Shown: piece after piece, positions 1-4,165 of the stretch
How positions within the stretch are numbered: position 1 is the stretch's first letter
Layout of the letters: the number at the start of each line of letters is the position of its first letter
Origin: Escherichia coli
GTDB lineage: Bacteria > Pseudomonadota > Gammaproteobacteria > Enterobacterales > Enterobacteriaceae
Direction: 5' to 3' (one strand)
DNA length: 44,959 nt
Assembly: GCF_003334255.1 (NCBI RefSeq)
Contig: NZ_QOWU01000045.1
Translations under genes and position numbers: made by a program
The notes under the pieces: generated by a model
The model's input: only the letters and a program-made list of their open reading frames with translations
Told to the model about the DNA's origin: nothing
Databases searched by the model: none

Positions 1-107
1 AATCGGTGGAGCTGCATGACAAAGTCATCGGGCATTATCTGAACATAAAACACTATCAATAAGTTGGAGTCATTACCCAGGACTTCTTTACTGAAAATGC
101 CACACAT
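1..107 (-). CDS. yobF: Small protein YobF, N-terminal 35 codons only; gene runs off the window start
   Basis: Reverse-strand ATG at 105-107 opens an uninterrupted frame MCGIFSKEVLGNDSNLLIVFYVQIMPDDFVMQLHR to position 1; N-terminus MCGIFSKEVL matches my memory of YobF; position upstream of yebO fits K-12 order. Not in the ORF track (too short in window). Confidence 0.55.
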   Translation of the reverse strand, partial: MCGIFSKEVLGNDSNLLIVFYVQIMPDDFVMQLHR

Positions 108-776
108 AAACAGAACTGTACCTCGTTTAACCCGAAATCTGTTATCACATACAACGTTAATTATGGCAAGCCATTTTTAAACATGTCTCGATCAGACGCA
201 CAAATCTCGATACGTCTTCCACTTTTTTTGCACACTTATGCAACGGAATACGCGCCGATATATCATTGTGCTTAACCTTGCCAGTTCAGGCAGATACTTA
301 AACTGGCGTATTTTCTAACATAGTTCAATAAGTTCAGTTGTTCCAGGCCAGTGGGAGAAGTTATTACATAGTGCGTGCAATATCACATTTTTTGCTATGC
401 AATGAATAAAAAGTTATATCACTTTTTCTCATAAAACAGTCAGTTAACGGCTATTAATTACCCTAAAGAGAAGTCAATCCCCAAAGGGATTGTAAATTTA
501 AAATAAGAAAAATTGATGAATGAGCAAAAAAATCAAGAGAGAAACGTTTCGCTAATAAATAATACCACGCTTAATCACAAATCCGATGTAAACATCCTAA
601 TAAATTAATGGGGTAAATATCTTTTTCTGATATCCCGTTACGCAAATAAATAATATGATAATTATTTGAAGTCAGACCAGAGTTTTAATTTGAAGCAGTT
701 GCACCATGACAGTGCGTATAATCAGGATGAATTGAGTAACCCTTCAACGACGGGGTTACTCAAGATTGAGGAAGGA

Positions 777-1064
777 TTATCGTTCGGCGACCAGACGAAT
801 AATATCTTCGTCTTCAACCGATTTTTGACTCTCAACGGTCTTTTTATCTGCTTTCTCTGGTTCGTTTGCTTCGCACAAACGACGTAACAGTGCATTTTGA
901 CGTTTTTGCTGATCCAGCAACGCCTCAAGCAGTTCAATCTGTTCGTTAGTCCGTGAACTGGCACGATTGATAAAAAACCACAAGATGAGCCCGATAAGAA
1001 GAACCACCACCGATACAACCAAAGACGCAATGTTCATCACGCCTGAATTTACAACTTCGTTCAT
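777..1064 (-). CDS. yebO: Small inner-membrane protein YebO (95 aa)
   Basis: Track ORF 777..1064 (-), 95 aa, with a hydrophobic TM segment; size and sequence consistent with YebO; synteny with mgrB. Confidence 0.8.
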   Translation of the reverse strand: MNEVVNSGVMNIASLVVSVVVLLIGLILWFFINRASSRTNEQIELLEALLDQQKRQNALLRRLCEANEPEKADKKTVESQKSVEDEDIIRLVAER

Positions 1065-1138
1065 TTCACCACCTCTGAGTAGAGGCGCTATTCTACCACT
1101 GCTGGAGAGGAAGAAAATCTAGTGCTGAAAAAATGATA

Positions 1139-1282
1139 TCACCACGGGATAAACTGGTTAATGGCACAAATTCCGCTGAAAAATTGTACATCCTGATCGC
1201 ACATCATGTTGAATACCTGCGCCCAAAGCAGCAAGCAAGCCAACACCACGACAACCAGAACGACCCATCGAAACTTTTTCAC
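1139..1282 (-). CDS. mgrB: MgrB, 47-aa membrane peptide that feeds back on PhoQ
   Basis: Hand translation of the reverse strand gives [47 protein letters not shown]-stop from a GTG at 1280-1282, with GGAG upstream. Matches MgrB. Below the track's 60-aa cutoff. Confidence 0.9.
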
Positions 1283-1310
1283 TCCAATCTCCGTTTCACC
1301 TACCTTATGT

Positions 1311-1339
1311 CATTAAACTAGCATGCGTTAGTTAAACAG
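1311..1339 (-). promoter_or_regulatory. Candidate PhoP-binding region upstream of mgrB
   Basis: On the mgrB strand the sequence reads CTGTTTAACTAACGCATGCTAGTTTAATG, about 30-60 bp upstream of the start; it contains TGTTTA and GTTTAA motifs resembling PhoP-box half-sites. mgrB is a known PhoP-activated gene. Exact half-site spacing not confirmed. Confidence 0.4.
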
Positions 1340-1440
1340 CGCCTAACTATGTCGATATTCGTGCTTTTTCGGAATGAGTCGCTTGCTTCAGCGCATATTG
1401 CCGCTACGATTAAGCGAACATAAAAAGAGAAGAGGTTGTA

Positions 1441-1680
1441 ATGCGATTCATCATTCGCACAGTTATGCTGATAGCACTGGTATGGATAGGATTATTACTC
1501 AGCGGATATGGCGTTTTGATTGGAAGCAAAGAGAATGCCGCAGGATTAGGTTTGCAATGTACCTATCTGACTGCCAGAGGCACCAGCACGGTACAATACT
1601 TGCACACTAAAAGTGGTTTTTTGGGGATAACAGATTGCCCGCTGTTACGCAAAAGCAATATCGTGGTCGATAATGGTTAA
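1441..1680 (+). CDS. yobH: Small membrane protein YobH (79 aa)
   Basis: Track ORF 79 aa with an N-terminal hydrophobic segment; size and position between mgrB and kdgR fit YobH. Confidence 0.8.
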   Translation: MRFIIRTVMLIALVWIGLLLSGYGVLIGSKENAAGLGLQCTYLTARGTSTVQYLHTKSGFLGITDCPLLRKSNIVVDNG

Positions 1681-1773
1681 GGGCAATAAATAACCAGATT
1701 CTCACTCCTGAGTAAAATACTCTTATAGCAAGCGCGTTTAATATAACGCCACCTTCAACTTTATTTTTCTCAT

Positions 1774-1815
1774 GCTAAATAAAGAACCTGTCTGTTTGAT
1801 ATTCCGACAGGTTCT
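1774..1815 (-). terminator. Hairpin terminator downstream of kdgR
   Basis: Inverted repeat AGAACCTGTC (1783-1792) / GACAGGTTCT (1806-1815); on the minus strand it is followed by a T-rich run (forward TAAATAAA 1776-1783), 9 bp past the kdgR stop. Confidence 0.5.
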
Positions 1816-1823
1816 TACTCTCA

Positions 1824-2615
1824 TCAGAACGGATAGTCGTGATAACCCATTTGGGCAGAAATTTTGCGCGCTGCGGTATGCAACATTGCGACATATTCCT
1901 GTAAACGCTCTTCAGAGAAACGCAACGTCGGGAAGGAGATGCTCAAACCGGCAATGACCACGCCAAAGCGATCAAATACCGGTACCGCAATGCATCGCAG
2001 CCCTTCTTCCTGCTCTTCATTATCTTCGCCATACCCCTGCTCGCGCACCTGGTCCAGAACGGGTAATAACGCTTCTGTACTGGTGATGGTCCGCTCGGTA
2101 CTGCGTTTATACTCCACGCCCTCAAGAATTTGCTTCACTTCATCGCGATCGCGCCATGCCAGCAGTACCTTACCAATCGCGGTGCTGTACAGCGGATTAC
2201 GACGCCCAATCCGTGAATACATGCGCAAATTGTACATAGAGTCAATTTTGTGAATGTAAACAATACTGTCTTCGTCCAGTGCGCCGAGGTGGATAGTTTC
2301 TTTGGTCAGGCGGGAGAGCTCACGCATCTGGATATCTGCGCTACGAATTAAATCGACGTTTTGTAACGCGCGAGCGCCCAGTTCAAACAATTTCAGGGTC
2401 AGGGAATATTTCTCCGACTCCCCTTCCTGCGCCACATAACCTAAGGTTTTCATGGTCTGTAAAAAGCGATAAACGGTGCTTTTTGACATCATGACGCGCT
2501 GCGACAGCTCGGTTATCCCTATTTCGCGCTCTTCACCCAGCGCCTGCAAAATGCCAAAAACTTTTAGCACGGAAGATACAGAATCAGGCTGTTTATCCAG
2601 ATCTGCGTTAGCCAT
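1824..2615 (-). CDS. kdgR: IclR-family transcriptional repressor KdgR (263 aa)
   Basis: Track ORF 263 aa beginning MANADLDKQPDSVSSVLKVFGILQALGEE with an N-terminal HTH and IclR-type effector domain; matches KdgR. Confidence 0.95.
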   Translation of the reverse strand: MANADLDKQPDSVSSVLKVFGILQALGEEREIGITELSQRVMMSKSTVYRFLQTMKTLGYVAQEGESEKYSLTLKLFELGARALQNVDLIRSADIQMRELSRLTKETIHLGALDEDSIVYIHKIDSMYNLRMYSRIGRRNPLYSTAIGKVLLAWRDRDEVKQILEGVEYKRSTERTITSTEALLPVLDQVREQGYGEDNEEQEEGLRCIAVPVFDRFGVVIAGLSISFPTLRFSEERLQEYVAMLHTAARKISAQMGYHDYPF

Positions 2616-2791
2616 TTATCACCTCATTGCGAGTGTTTTATAAAAATCAGAACTGTTTTTTATTATAATTTCGCACCAGGGTGGTCGCAATCCATCTTTT
2701 GCCGGTTAGTTACAATTCTGCGACATCCACCGTGAATATCAGTGCTAGAATCATACCCCTGTTGATTATTCACCAAAGATATAAAATTCCT

Positions 2792-4165
2792 ATGCCAAAA
2801 GTTCAGGCCGACGGCCTGCCATTGCCCCAGCGATACGGTGCGATATTAACCATTGTGATTGGTATTTCGATGGCCGTCCTTGACGGCGCAATCGCCAACG
2901 TCGCCCTGCCAACAATCGCCACGGACCTTCATGCCACGCCAGCCAGTTCCATCTGGGTAGTGAACGCCTATCAAATCGCCATTGTCATCTCCCTGCTCTC
3001 GTTTTCGTTTCTGGGCGATATGTTTGGCTATCGACGTATTTATAAATGCGGTCTGGTCGTTTTTCTGTTGTCTTCACTGTTCTGCGCCCTTTCTGATTCG
3101 CTGCAAATGCTCACCCTTGCGCGTGTCATACAAGGTTTCGGCGGTGCAGCGTTGATGAGCGTTAATACCGCACTTATCCGCCTGATCTATCCACAACGTT
3201 TTCTGGGTAGAGGGATGGGCATAAACTCGTTTATTGTTGCCGTCTCTTCTGCTGCCGGGCCGACAATTGCTGCAGCAATCCTCTCCATCGCATCCTGGAA
3301 ATGGTTATTTTTAATCAACGTACCGTTAGGTATTATCGCCCTGCTTCTGGCGATGCGTTTTCTGCCACCCAATGGTTCTCGCGCCAGTAAACCCCGTTTC
3401 GACCTGCCCAGCGCCGTGATGAACGCGTTAACCTTCGGCCTGCTTATCACTGCGTTGAGTGGTTTCGCTCAGGGGCAATCGCTGACGTTAATTGCTGCGG
3501 AACTGGTGGTAATGGTTGTTGTTGGTATTTTCTTTATTCGCCGCCAGCTTTCTCTTCCCGTACCGCTGCTACCGGTGGATTTACTGCGTATCCCGCTGTT
3601 TTCACTTTCTATTTGCACATCTGTTTGCTCTTTCTGCGCACAAATGCTGGCAATGGTTTCCCTGCCCTTTTACCTGCAAACCGTGCTCGGGCGTAGTGAA
3701 GTCGAAACAGGTTTACTTCTGACACCGTGGCCGTTAGCAACGATGGTGATGGCTCCGCTGGCAGGCTATTTGATTGAACGCGTACATGCAGGATTGCTGG
3801 GGGCTTTAGGGTTGTTCATCATGGCTGCGGGGCTTTTTTCCCTGGTTCTGCTGCCCGCGTCACCTGCGGATATCAATATTATCTGGCCGATGATCTTATG
3901 TGGTGCTGGATTTGGCTTATTCCAGTCACCCAATAACCACACCATTATTACCTCCGCGCCTCGCGAACGTAGCGGTGGAGCCAGTGGCATGTTAGGAACG
4001 GCTCGTCTACTGGGTCAGAGTAGCGGCGCGGCGCTGGTGGCGCTGATGCTAAATCAGTTTGGAGATAATGGTACACACGTCTCGCTGATGGCTGCGGCTA
4101 TTCTGGCAGTGATTGCTGCCTGTGTCAGTGGTTTACGTATCACTCAGCCACGATCCAGGGCATAA
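2792..4165 (+). CDS. yebQ: MFS-family efflux transporter YebQ (457 aa)
   Basis: Track ORF 2681..4165 trimmed to the ATG at 2792 (MPKVQADGLPLPQRYG), giving 457 aa; multi-TM MFS-like sequence. Confidence 0.9.
   Translation: MPKVQADGLPLPQRYGAILTIVIGISMAVLDGAIANVALPTIATDLHATPASSIWVVNAYQIAIVISLLSFSFLGDMFGYRRIYKCGLVVFLLSSLFCALSDSLQMLTLARVIQGFGGAALMSVNTALIRLIYPQRFLGRGMGINSFIVAVSSAAGPTIAAAILSIASWKWLFLINVPLGIIALLLAMRFLPPNGSRASKPRFDLPSAVMNALTFGLLITALSGFAQGQSLTLIAAELVVMVVVGIFFIRRQLSLPVPLLPVDLLRIPLFSLSICTSVCSFCAQMLAMVSLPFYLQTVLGRSEVETGLLLTPWPLATMVMAPLAGYLIERVHAGLLGALGLFIMAAGLFSLVLLPASPADINIIWPMILCGAGFGLFQSPNNHTIITSAPRERSGGASGMLGTARLLGQSSGAALVALMLNQFGDNGTHVSLMAAAILAVIAACVSGLRITQPRSRA

Follow-up and report, generated by a model that had tools for sequence, protein, structure and literature searches.

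Positions 1 to 1,680 of the window (the whole 44,959-nucleotide stretch of Escherichia coli DNA that was analysed) are the E. coli cspC-yobF / yebO-mgrB / yobH locus, which is well studied and carries one lesion, an IS1 in yobF. Our overall reading, to which we assign a probability of about 85%, is that this known locus has IS1 after yobF codon 10, and that the AT-rich gap between yobF and yebO is the control region of yobF-cspC, containing no new gene. Publications already cover the genes and their start sites as well as the control of mgrB by PhoP and of yobF by small RNAs. The following features make up the coding part of the locus.

1 to 77, plus strand: right end of IS1 (the side of the terminal inverted repeat), the element continuing beyond the left window edge.
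78 to 107, minus strand: yobF remnant, the ATG and codons 1-10 (MCGIFSKEVL), running straight into IS1.
777 to 1064, minus strand: yebO, 95 amino acids with one N-terminal hydrophobic helix, from the ORF list and RefSeq annotation.
1139 to 1282, minus strand: mgrB, 47 amino acids with a GTG start, the PhoQ inhibitor, from an NCBIfam equivalog and RefSeq annotation.
1441 to 1680, plus strand: yobH, 79 amino acids with an N-terminal hydrophobic segment, from the ORF and annotation.

Sequence comparison showed that the window is base-for-base identical to E. coli K-12 MG1655 from position 78 to at least 3016, and the genes (b1823-b1826, b4536), start sites, terminator and PhoP box are all shared with that strain. 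The two differ at yobF, which in the present genome is interrupted by IS1 at MG1655 1907561/62. The window also has 59 substitutions relative to K-12 further along, and K-12 synteny is lost at 44007. Thus, the host is a close relative of K-12, not K-12 itself.

An earlier note on this DNA had recognized yobF, yebO, mgrB and yobH, and its coordinates stand, including a yobF ATG at 107 on the minus strand. It took yobF as intact, however, and overlooked the IS1 end, and only 10 codons of the gene remain. Alignment to MG1655 breaks at 77/78, and yobF homology begins at base 78. The first 77 positions match the terminal 77 bases of IS1 with 97-100% identity to IS1A/IS1B elements (found in thousands of E. 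coli records), and their reverse complement begins with the IS1 inverted-repeat end, GGTAATGACTCCAAC. The remnant itself is identical to MG1655 yobF 1907562-1907591. Because bases 1-77 are an IS1 end, yobF is a 10-codon stump, severed from the remaining yobF-cspC.

Insertion of IS1 after yobF codon 10 appears to be the event recorded here, as known from one junction, the other lying beyond the window edge; the alternative would be an assembly join at a repeat. The IS1 transposase genes would read on the plus strand, opposite to yobF; the complete element is 768 bp, and its expected 9-bp target duplication is CAGGACTTC (window 78-86). An independent IS1 lies within 1 nt of the same yobF site in a W3110 derivative. 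Such an insertion would leave the promoters, the leader and the first 10 codons of yobF (78-205) reading into IS1. The rest of yobF and cspC would lie beyond the element, and loss of YobF and uncoupling of cspC from the yobF promoters would be expected.

In ageing K-12 colonies, yobF-cspC is a recurrent and adaptive target of insertion sequences, which were found in 12 of 24 isolates and silence cspC (PMC13162491). The present case resembles isolate Y5 of Saint-Ruf et al. 2026 (PMC13162491), as in both an IS1 pointing against the operon lies in the yobF coding sequence, with silencing of cspC expected. They differ in position, with the insertion at 1,907,482 in Y5 and at 1,907,561/62 here, and the present one is seen through one junction. 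Thus, the yobF disruption suggests that this strain is probably low in CspC, a state selected in published evolution experiments. For annotators, the correction is that yobF in this genome is an IS1-disrupted stump.

On the far side of the gap, three features describe the transcription of mgrB and yebO.

1308 to 1349, minus strand: PhoP-activated mgrB promoter, with a PhoP box TAGTTA-GGCGC-TGTTTA (1349..1333), a 12-nt spacer, an extended -10 TGcTAGTTT (1323..1315) and a start at A1308.
1083 to 1098, minus strand: the promoter of yebO itself, TGgTAGAAT (1098..1090), with its start at 1083.
728 to 761, minus strand: 3' end of the mgrB-yebO transcript, a leaky hairpin GAGTAACCC/GGGTTACTC (734-742 / 753-761) that has no U-tract.

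MgrB is identified at full length (1-47) by NCBIfam equivalog NF007635, scoring 89.9 bits (cut-off 40). Its PhoP box, TAGTTAGGCGCTGTTTA at 1349..1333, has 2 mismatches to (T/G)GTTTA-N5-(T/G)GTTTA; relative to the PhoP consensus, the two departures are in the distal half-site, TAGTTA. Conservation across 71 loci is at least 95% for each half-site, and the direct repeat, the 12-nt gap to the -10 and the lack of a -35 hexamer are shared with PhoP promoters of the mgtA/mgrB type. The dependence of this promoter on PhoP is known from the literature. A PhoP box upstream of mgrB had been suggested previously; it is real but was mislocated, the true box being at 1333-1349. The range then proposed for a scan, 1311-1339, takes in the proximal half-site and the -10 region but leaves the distal half-site outside, and the TTTAA repeat with 19-nt spacing that was apparently picked is not a PhoP box.

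The operon start of mgrB-yebO was mapped at 1908792, which is window 1308, 7 nt after the -10 (PMC6131387). SMRT-Cappable-seq also places a yebO start at 1908567, window 1083 (PMC6131387), the same base at which the primer used to clone the yebO 5' UTR begins (Adams 2021). In this arrangement, mgrB is driven by a canonical PhoP-box promoter and shares its transcript with yebO, which also uses a start of its own at 1083. Term-seq gives a primary 3' end at 1908212/3, window 728/729 (eLife 62438 supplement), and SMRT-Cappable-seq lists a read-through operon yebO-yobF-cspC (PMC6131387). The yebO 3' hairpin, with no U-tract, lets some transcripts continue into yobF-cspC. Orthologues of yebO are 63-95% identical in 80 loci, and alignments show non-homologous hairpins at the same place after yebO in other genera. 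Additionally, yobH has a predicted candidate promoter, TTGCTT (1383-1388)-16-TACGAT (1405-1410), and the mgrB-yobH spacer contains a block conserved in the alignment.

The 669-bp gap (108-776) is as AT-rich as had been remarked, with 35.1% GC against 50.2% in the whole window, and no ORF of at least 60 amino acids lies wholly within it, again as previously described. One 73-amino-acid ORF (666-887, plus strand) begins in the gap and continues antisense into yebO. Genomic SELEX has placed H-NS in the 670-bp yebO-yobF spacer (PMC3946193), and an RpoN peak also falls within it (PMC8743547). Close to yobF, the gap is occupied by promoters and leader.

108 to 205, minus strand: block A, comprising promoters and leader, with 80-94% identity to the E. 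coli sequence at each of 76 orthologous loci by blastn and alignments.
108 to 133, minus strand: yobF leader of 26 nt, with a Shine-Dalgarno GAGG at 124..121, 13 nt before the ATG.
141 to 169, minus strand: sigma-70 promoter Pa, with -35 TTGCCA (169..164) and extended -10 TGtGATAAC (149..141).
160 to 189, minus strand: overlapping promoter Pb from a promoter scan, with -35 GAGACA (189..184), extended -10 TGcCATAAT (168..160) and a start near 155.

The earlier view of the gap as a promoter region for yobF-cspC is borne out both by an RpoD promoter and by a mapped start. The promoter, TTGCCA-17-GATAAC, which is Pa, was found by genomic SELEX together with several RNA polymerase peaks in the 670-bp spacer (PMC3946193), and SMRT-Cappable-seq maps the yobF-cspC start to MG1655 1907617, window 133 (PMC6131387). 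Pa lies 8 nt upstream of this measured start, and both Pa and Pb are invariant across genera in the alignments. The primer for the 5' UTR of a Salmonella yobF::sfgfp fusion begins at GTTGTATG, corresponding to window 155 and giving a leader of 48 nt. The leader is reported to be a target of OxyS and CyaR (PMC10965054, PMC5861431), and in our own reading of the sequence GGGTTAAACGAGG at 133..121 is complementary to the OxyS loop. Across 16 genera the leader is near-invariant in alignments, probably because it carries the ribosome-binding region paired by OxyS and CyaR. A CRP reading of the upstream part of block A was poor against the consensus by eye and was dropped.

Beyond block A, a blastn profile and alignments show a block structure conserved across 76 enterobacterial loci.

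229 to 241, minus strand: block B, GCATAAnTGTGCA, conserved in alignments.
317 to 345, minus strand: block D, promoter-like, TGGAAC (345..340)-17-TATGTT (322..317) in E. coli, with the consensus TGGACG-17-TATGGT.
377 to 412, minus strand: block E, TTTATGCATT...AAAGTGATAT, conserved in alignments.
502 to 581, minus strand: block F, a distal upstream element of yobF-cspC, from blastn and alignments.

Across Enterobacteriaceae, the pattern of blocks F, E, D, B and A points to about 470 bp of the gap as an upstream control region of yobF. Block E may be a promoter of the extended -10 type or a site where a protein binds. Read towards yobF, the gap consists of the yebO 3' hairpin, then about 100-150 bp of fast-evolving AT-rich DNA, and then about 470 bp of block-conserved control region.

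An AT-rich gap of this kind might instead be what is left of a decayed gene that the Escherichia lineage has lost. The candidate is a 331-amino-acid MBL-fold hydrolase, whose gene separates yebO from yobF in Lelliottia, many Enterobacter, Kosakonia, Leclercia, Buttiauxella and Cedecea. The length of the yebO-yobF gap is bimodal (441-744 bp or 1455-1581 bp), with the hydrolase gene directly after yebO in the long class, and two short-gap loci of the Enterobacter hormaechei group retain a weak trace of the hydrolase C-terminus (tblastn E = 0.016). The same search, however, revealed no trace of the hydrolase in the E. coli gap. Moreover, the long-gap genomes have about 520 bp between the hydrolase stop and yobF, which contain the same blocks F to A; block F is thus also found in genomes with the extra gene after yebO. 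Because blocks F to A are kept after the hydrolase stop, about 470 of the 669 bp in E. coli are yobF upstream region and not gene remnant. A hydrolase scar could occupy at most 100-150 bp, at 582-727, and we regard a decayed gene as an improbable account of the gap.

It had also been suggested that the gap could hide further small ORFs or a small RNA. Two examples are a plus-strand ORF of 31 amino acids (513-608), which overlaps the best-conserved distal block and has a same-frame ORF readable by eye in Citrobacter koseri, and a minus-strand transcript ending at a hairpin that scans as terminator-like.

475 to 492, no strand assigned: hairpin of 7 perfect base pairs around a 4-nt loop, confined to the E. 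coli lineage, called terminator-like on the minus strand, where ACTTCTCTTT follows it.

Neither candidate survived comparison. Ten related species were compared for the 19 gap ORFs of at least 10 amino acids. Each of these ORFs fails in start, frame or stop in most of the ten, none is intact in more than two, and none is retained by all three of the other Escherichia species, so the conservation of short ORFs that had been proposed as a check is lacking even within Escherichia. The 513-608 ORF is frameshifted by a 1-nt indel in an A-run in two of four other E. coli strains, and in Enterobacter the invariant core sits in another frame. This core is unchanged at every codon position, which argues for constraint at the DNA level. 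The ORF was dropped as a conserved peptide on the Enterobacter frame, the systematic ORF test and the E. coli indel.

Evidence for a small RNA was equally absent from the sources consulted. Published E. coli SMRT-Cappable-seq and Term-seq data place starts at 133, 1083 and 1308; they list none between the first two of these and give no RNA 3' end for the gap. An Rfam scan of positions 1-2400, with E values up to 1, returned only a chance plant snoRNA (E = 0.9). The hairpin CAATCCC-CAAA-GGGATTG is present exactly at 475-492, as described, but its stem has 4 GC pairs and its tail, ACTTCTCTTT, is weak, and Term-seq has no 3' end between 1907479 and 1908212, so that it does not behave as an intrinsic terminator. 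In alignments it is absent from three other Escherichia species, and in E. coli AHB30 it is broken by two non-compensatory changes, so the hairpin is not conserved either outside E. coli or throughout it. Three perfect 7-bp hairpins occur in the gap, where shuffled sequence would be expected to give 0.4 and yields three in 2.6% of cases; the two besides 475-492 are pure A/T palindromes. The 475-492 hairpin is probably a lineage-specific palindrome without function. We conclude that the gap encodes no conserved peptide (from ORFs of at least 10 amino acids) or small RNA, and consider it very improbable that it conceals an unannotated gene of either kind. Given this negative result, a search for hidden genes in this conspicuous AT-rich stretch is unnecessary.

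Given a control region for yobF-cspC, it may be asked how much of it is transcribed. Most of the gap could be a long, structured 5' leader that is transcribed from a promoter further out and serves as a riboregulator or thermosensor. A Salmonella yobF-cspC start lies 172-181 nt upstream of Tn5 insertions called as 5' UTR, which by our own calculation from the Tn5 coordinates (PMC10965054) brackets this start at 180-389 nt upstream of the yobF ATG, with a leader of that length. Induction of yobF by heat and low Mg2+ is reported to be post-transcriptional (PMC11429745), read-through from yebO yields a long 5' extension, and block D stands at a near-constant distance from the yobF ATG, its CTATGGT motif being 214-219 nt away at 53 of the 77 loci and within 207-231 nt at 62 of them. 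Against this, the sole E. coli yobF-cspC start listed by SMRT-Cappable-seq yields a leader of 26 nt, and in Salmonella OxyS control is reproduced by a reporter with only 48 nt of leader. No consensus structure emerged from 48 non-redundant 206-nt leaders (RNAalifold -7.5 kcal/mol, with pairs only in the invariant proximal part). In a test for a conserved 5' hairpin after block D, single-sequence z-scores were weak, with a mean of -0.75 and 13 of 48 below -1.5, and there is little sequence conservation in the interval that separates block D from block A. We therefore consider a gap-long structured leader rather unlikely. The long leader envisaged in the earlier note does not hold for the main E. 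coli transcript, with its 26 nt; a long form arises only through yebO read-through or from the distal start reported in Salmonella.

Within the control region that we favour, block D is promoter-like and probably gives the distal Salmonella start. Its predicted start near 310 would produce a leader of about 203 nt, which fits the Salmonella start and Tn5 coordinates, and blocks E or F as the source of this start are less consistent with the Tn5 phenotypes and coordinates. SMRT-Cappable-seq in E. coli lists no start at block D. Readings of block D as a sigma-54, sigma-E or sigma-32 promoter were poor against the consensus by eye and were dropped.

Block F contains what we consider a previously unreported lead, a conserved box that resembles the operator of the ribose repressor RbsR.

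538 to 553, no strand assigned: RbsR-operator-like palindrome, AGCGAAACGTTTCTCT on the minus strand, matching rbsO (AGCGAAACGTTTCGCT) at 15 of 16 positions.

The rbsO reference was confirmed both upstream of MG1655 rbsD and in the RbsR-DNA crystallisation oligonucleotide. A pattern scan of the window matched once, where 0.02 matches were expected. The box is invariant in five diverse E. coli strains. In 69 of 77 loci AAACGTTT, the centre of its core CGAAACGTTT, precedes the yobF ATG by 380-475 nt; in 62 of the 77 the distance is 421-464 nt. Compared with rbsO upstream of rbsD (TCAGCGAAACGTTTCGCTGA), 15 of 16 central positions are shared, the left half-site AGCGAAAC is exact, and both are palindromic about CG. 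The right half, in contrast, is GTTTCTCT in the E. coli yobF box and GTTTTTAT or GTTTTGCT in other genera, and the yobF box lies about 440 bp upstream of yobF, whereas rbsO is between promoter and start codon. A literature search tied RbsR to yobF/cspC only as separate hits of one Salmonella screen, and found no binding data.

Tentatively, and at odds that we put well below even, 538-553 may be a real site for RbsR, or for a close paralogue of the LacI family, that couples yobF-cspC to ribose. RbsR bound at the candidate box could act on a distal promoter, or could roadblock read-through transcripts from yebO. If so, there would be a direct route linking the rbsR and cspC mutants recovered from the same Salmonella succinate screen, and the site would also bear on the effect of RbsR on RpoS, which is post-transcriptional. 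The AAACGTTT core is also common to PurR and Cra boxes.

An IS1 insertion interrupts yobF in this stretch. Window positions 1-77 are an IS1 end, with matching IS1 termini in thousands of chromosome and plasmid sequences; the match to MG1655 is interrupted at 77/78. On the yobF strand, the ATG and nine codons (MCGIFSKEVL) run straight into GGTAATGACTCC..., the IS1 terminus. Thus yobF, which the earlier note had described without a lesion, keeps only codons 1-10, and its remainder, like cspC, lies past IS1, outside the window. None of the complete genomes inspected carried the 77/78 IS1-yobF junction as a single match. Independent IS1 copies occur in or beside yobF in other E. coli genomes (fetched loci):

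L003:1771-2540, IS1 copy
L004:1365-2062, IS1 copy
L002:2055-2752, IS1 copy

In a W3110 derivative IS1 lies within 1 nt of the window's insertion site in the opposite orientation, in KMi029 at the yobF 3' end, and in SHP24 inside the yobF-yebO gap. A 2026 study of an ageing K-12 colony found yobF-cspC lesions, mostly IS1 or IS5, in 12 of 24 isolates; the lesions silenced cspC and made the isolates more competitive (PMC13162491). The window's insertion fits these lesions, and together with the other copies suggests that IS1 has a hot spot here, that insertions here are selected, or both.

The locus and its regulation are already known, and the earlier note, IS1 aside, was largely correct. Positions 1-1700 were matched in all 5,426 complete E. 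coli genomes, with yobF, yebO, mgrB and yobH annotated beneath the matches. Gene order is identical in MG1655 (rlmA, cspC, yobF, 669-bp gap, yebO, mgrB, divergent yobH, kdgR; window position = MG1655 coordinate - 1,907,484), and 78-3016 shows zero differences from it. The ORF list places the genes as first described:

107, minus strand, yobF ATG
777-1064, minus strand, yebO
1139-1282, minus strand, mgrB (GTG start)
1441-1680, plus strand, yobH

The description of all four products as small membrane proteins holds for YebO, YobH and MgrB, in which N-terminal hydrophobic helices are obvious (MgrB also passes a curated NCBIfam equivalog); YobF is not obviously hydrophobic, and its membrane association has been reported (PMC11429745). 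The window is colinear with MG1655 over 73-44006 (99.87% identity, 59 substitutions over 43.9 kb, no gaps), and synteny ends at 44007, near the yecD/yecE boundary. Because of these substitutions and the lost synteny, the host is not K-12 itself. The foreign DNA at 44007-44959, annotated elsewhere as 'S6 family peptidase' and 'DinI-like family protein', reaches at least 80% coverage in only 9 of 5,426 genomes and is probably the edge of a prophage or island.

The gap (108-776) is AT-rich, as noted (35.1% GC against 50.2% for the window), and its proposed role as the yobF-cspC promoter region is borne out by published data. In the 670-bp spacer, gSELEX identified an RpoD promoter (TTGCCA-17-GATAAC), several polymerase peaks and H-NS (PMC3946193); the motif occupies window 169-141, 8 nt upstream of the first of these starts measured by SMRT-Cappable-seq (PMC6131387 supplement):

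1907617 (window 133), yobF-cspC start
1908567 (window 1083), yebO start
1908792 (window 1308), mgrB-yebO start

That data set has no start between 133 and 1083, and it includes yebO-yobF-cspC as a read-through operon. Overlapping the RpoD promoter is a second one (GAGACA-18-CATAAT), which agrees with the 5' end of a Salmonella yobF::sfgfp fusion (GTTGTATG, window 155). As the 5' ends lie at 133 and 155, the main yobF leader is 26-48 nt, not long. The yobF SD (GAGG) lies 13 nt from the ATG (window 108-124), an unusually long spacing that fits the reported extreme difference in translation efficiency between yobF and cspC within one mRNA (bioRxiv 10.1101/109264). In Term-seq data the primary yebO 3' end is 1908212/3 (window 728/729), immediately downstream of a hairpin at 734-761; no other 3' end was reported in the gap, and none at the 475-492 hairpin (eLife 62438 supplement).

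A hidden gene or sRNA in the gap, which the earlier note had raised, is not supported. Each of the 19 gap ORFs of at least 10 aa, on either strand, lacks a preserved start, reading frame or stop codon in most of the ten related species compared, and none is preserved in all three other Escherichia species. One of them (513-608, plus strand, 31 aa) overlaps conserved block F; its core, which does not vary at any codon position, falls in another frame in Enterobacter, and the ORF has a 1-nt indel in two of four other E. coli strains. For an sRNA, no Rfam family was found, and the transcript data offer neither an internal start nor a 3' end. The 475-492 hairpin is missing from the three other Escherichia species and carries two changes, both pair-breaking, in E. 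coli AHB30. The gap holds three perfect 7-bp hairpins against 0.4 in shuffles; two are A/T palindromes of a kind common in AT-rich DNA.

Across 80 orthologous loci fetched via YebO, the order kdgR-yobH-mgrB-yebO-gap-yobF-cspC is kept throughout and gap length is bimodal. Short gaps (441-744 bp) occur in Escherichia, Salmonella, Citrobacter, Klebsiella and others; long gaps (1455-1581 bp) hold, after yebO, a gene for a 331-334 aa MBL-fold metal-dependent hydrolase (HNHYDH motif):

L011:3308-4303, hydrolase gene between yebO and yobF
L065:3328-4332, the same, as in about 30 other loci

The gene is found in Lelliottia, many Enterobacter, Kosakonia, Leclercia, Buttiauxella, Cedecea and Phytobacter, and is absent from the four named short-gap genera. 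No remnant is detectable in the E. coli gap; two short-gap Enterobacter hormaechei-group loci (L072, L055) retain a weak trace of its C-terminus. Conservation relative to E. coli is strongly graded, with no alignable sequence outside Escherichia at 627-776 and these islands nearer yobF:

502-581, block F
377-412, block E
312-346, block D
229-241, block B
108-205, block A, near-invariant in all genera

In long-gap genomes the blocks keep their distances from yobF, which assigns about 470 bp of the gap in E. coli to the yobF upstream region. Block A holds both proximal promoters, the SD and GGGTTAAACGAGG, which by our own reading is complementary to the OxyS loop; published work shows that OxyS and CyaR control yobF at its SD region (PMC10965054, PMC5861431). 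A GCATAA(n)T(g/a)TGCA-like motif occurs in both block B and block E, some 120-150 bp apart, also in loci L005-L084, and blocks F and A both have TGTGCA/GGTGCA at their ends; neither motif convincingly matches a known binding-site consensus. Within E. coli, 430-620 varies widely (at least 99% identical in only 854 of 5,421 genomes, 95-99% in 4,172, 90-95% in 395).

The long leader first suggested is thus not the main E. coli form, and survives in the read-through operon and a Salmonella distal start. The Salmonella yobF-cspC start is at 1893683, with Tn5 insertions called '5' UTR' at 1893511 and 1893502 and one in cspC at 1893137 (PMC10965054); with Salmonella gene spacing, these coordinates put the start 180-389 nt upstream of the ATG. 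The sequence of block D is TGGACG-17-TATGGT (TGGAAC-17-TATGTT in E. coli); of 77 loci, 53 have it at 214-219 nt from the ATG and 62 at 207-231 nt. We infer that block D could be a distal promoter. The leader would then be about 203 nt, and the Tn5 insertions, 23-32 nt short of the ATG, would lie downstream of all starts, which would explain their null phenotype. Alternatively, the distal start may be at block E or F. No consensus RNA structure was found in the long leader.

Block F has an invariant core, AGCGAAACGTTTCTCT (553..538), that shares 15 of 16 positions with the RbsR operator AGCGAAACGTTTCGCT. This is the only such match in the window (0.02 expected); the reference operator was confirmed upstream of rbsD and in the oligo used to crystallise RbsR with DNA. 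In 69 of 77 loci AAACGTTT, which is the centre of the CGAAACGTTT core, is found 380-475 nt upstream of yobF, and the box is unchanged in five diverse aligned E. coli strains, inside the variable 430-620 region. We hypothesize that it is a putative RbsR operator for yobF-cspC, although PurR or Cra could recognise the core equally well. Mutants in rbsR and cspC were independent hits in one Salmonella succinate screen, which left the RbsR effect on RpoS unexplained (PMC10965054); we found no literature report of RbsR binding at this site. In many genera (for example loci L063, L076 and L055) an inverted repeat, TGCCT-N7-AGGCA, directly follows the RbsR-like core, about 400-440 nt upstream of yobF in non-Escherichia loci. 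Where its arms are longer, changes on one side are matched on the other (GCCTCATGATGAGGC, GCCTCATTCTGAGGC). The repeat is absent from Escherichia, Citrobacter and Salmonella, and it may be a hairpin or a second protein site.

The PhoP box suspected upstream of mgrB is present, but the proposed 1311-1339 holds only one half-site and the -10:

1349..1333, PhoP box TAGTTA-GGCGC-TGTTTA, then 12 nt, TGcTAGTTT and the measured start A1308

Across 71 loci, each half-site shows conservation of at least 95%. mgrB shares a transcript with yebO, and the pair is a CyaR target (PMC5861431); yebO also has its own promoter, TGgTAGAAT. Term-seq gives 3' ends inside yebO (1908368/371, 1908477, 1908502), one scored in the Rho-inhibitor data set, and its authors cloned the yebO '5' UTR + ORF' for a premature-termination assay; yebO may thus be subject to intragenic Rho-dependent termination. 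Between yobH and kdgR, a convergent hairpin (AGAACCTGTC / GACAGGTTCT, window 1783-1819) suggests a shared bidirectional terminator; a plus-strand Term-seq 3' end at 1909303 (window 1819), within the kdgR stop region, gives yobH a 3' UTR of about 139 nt.
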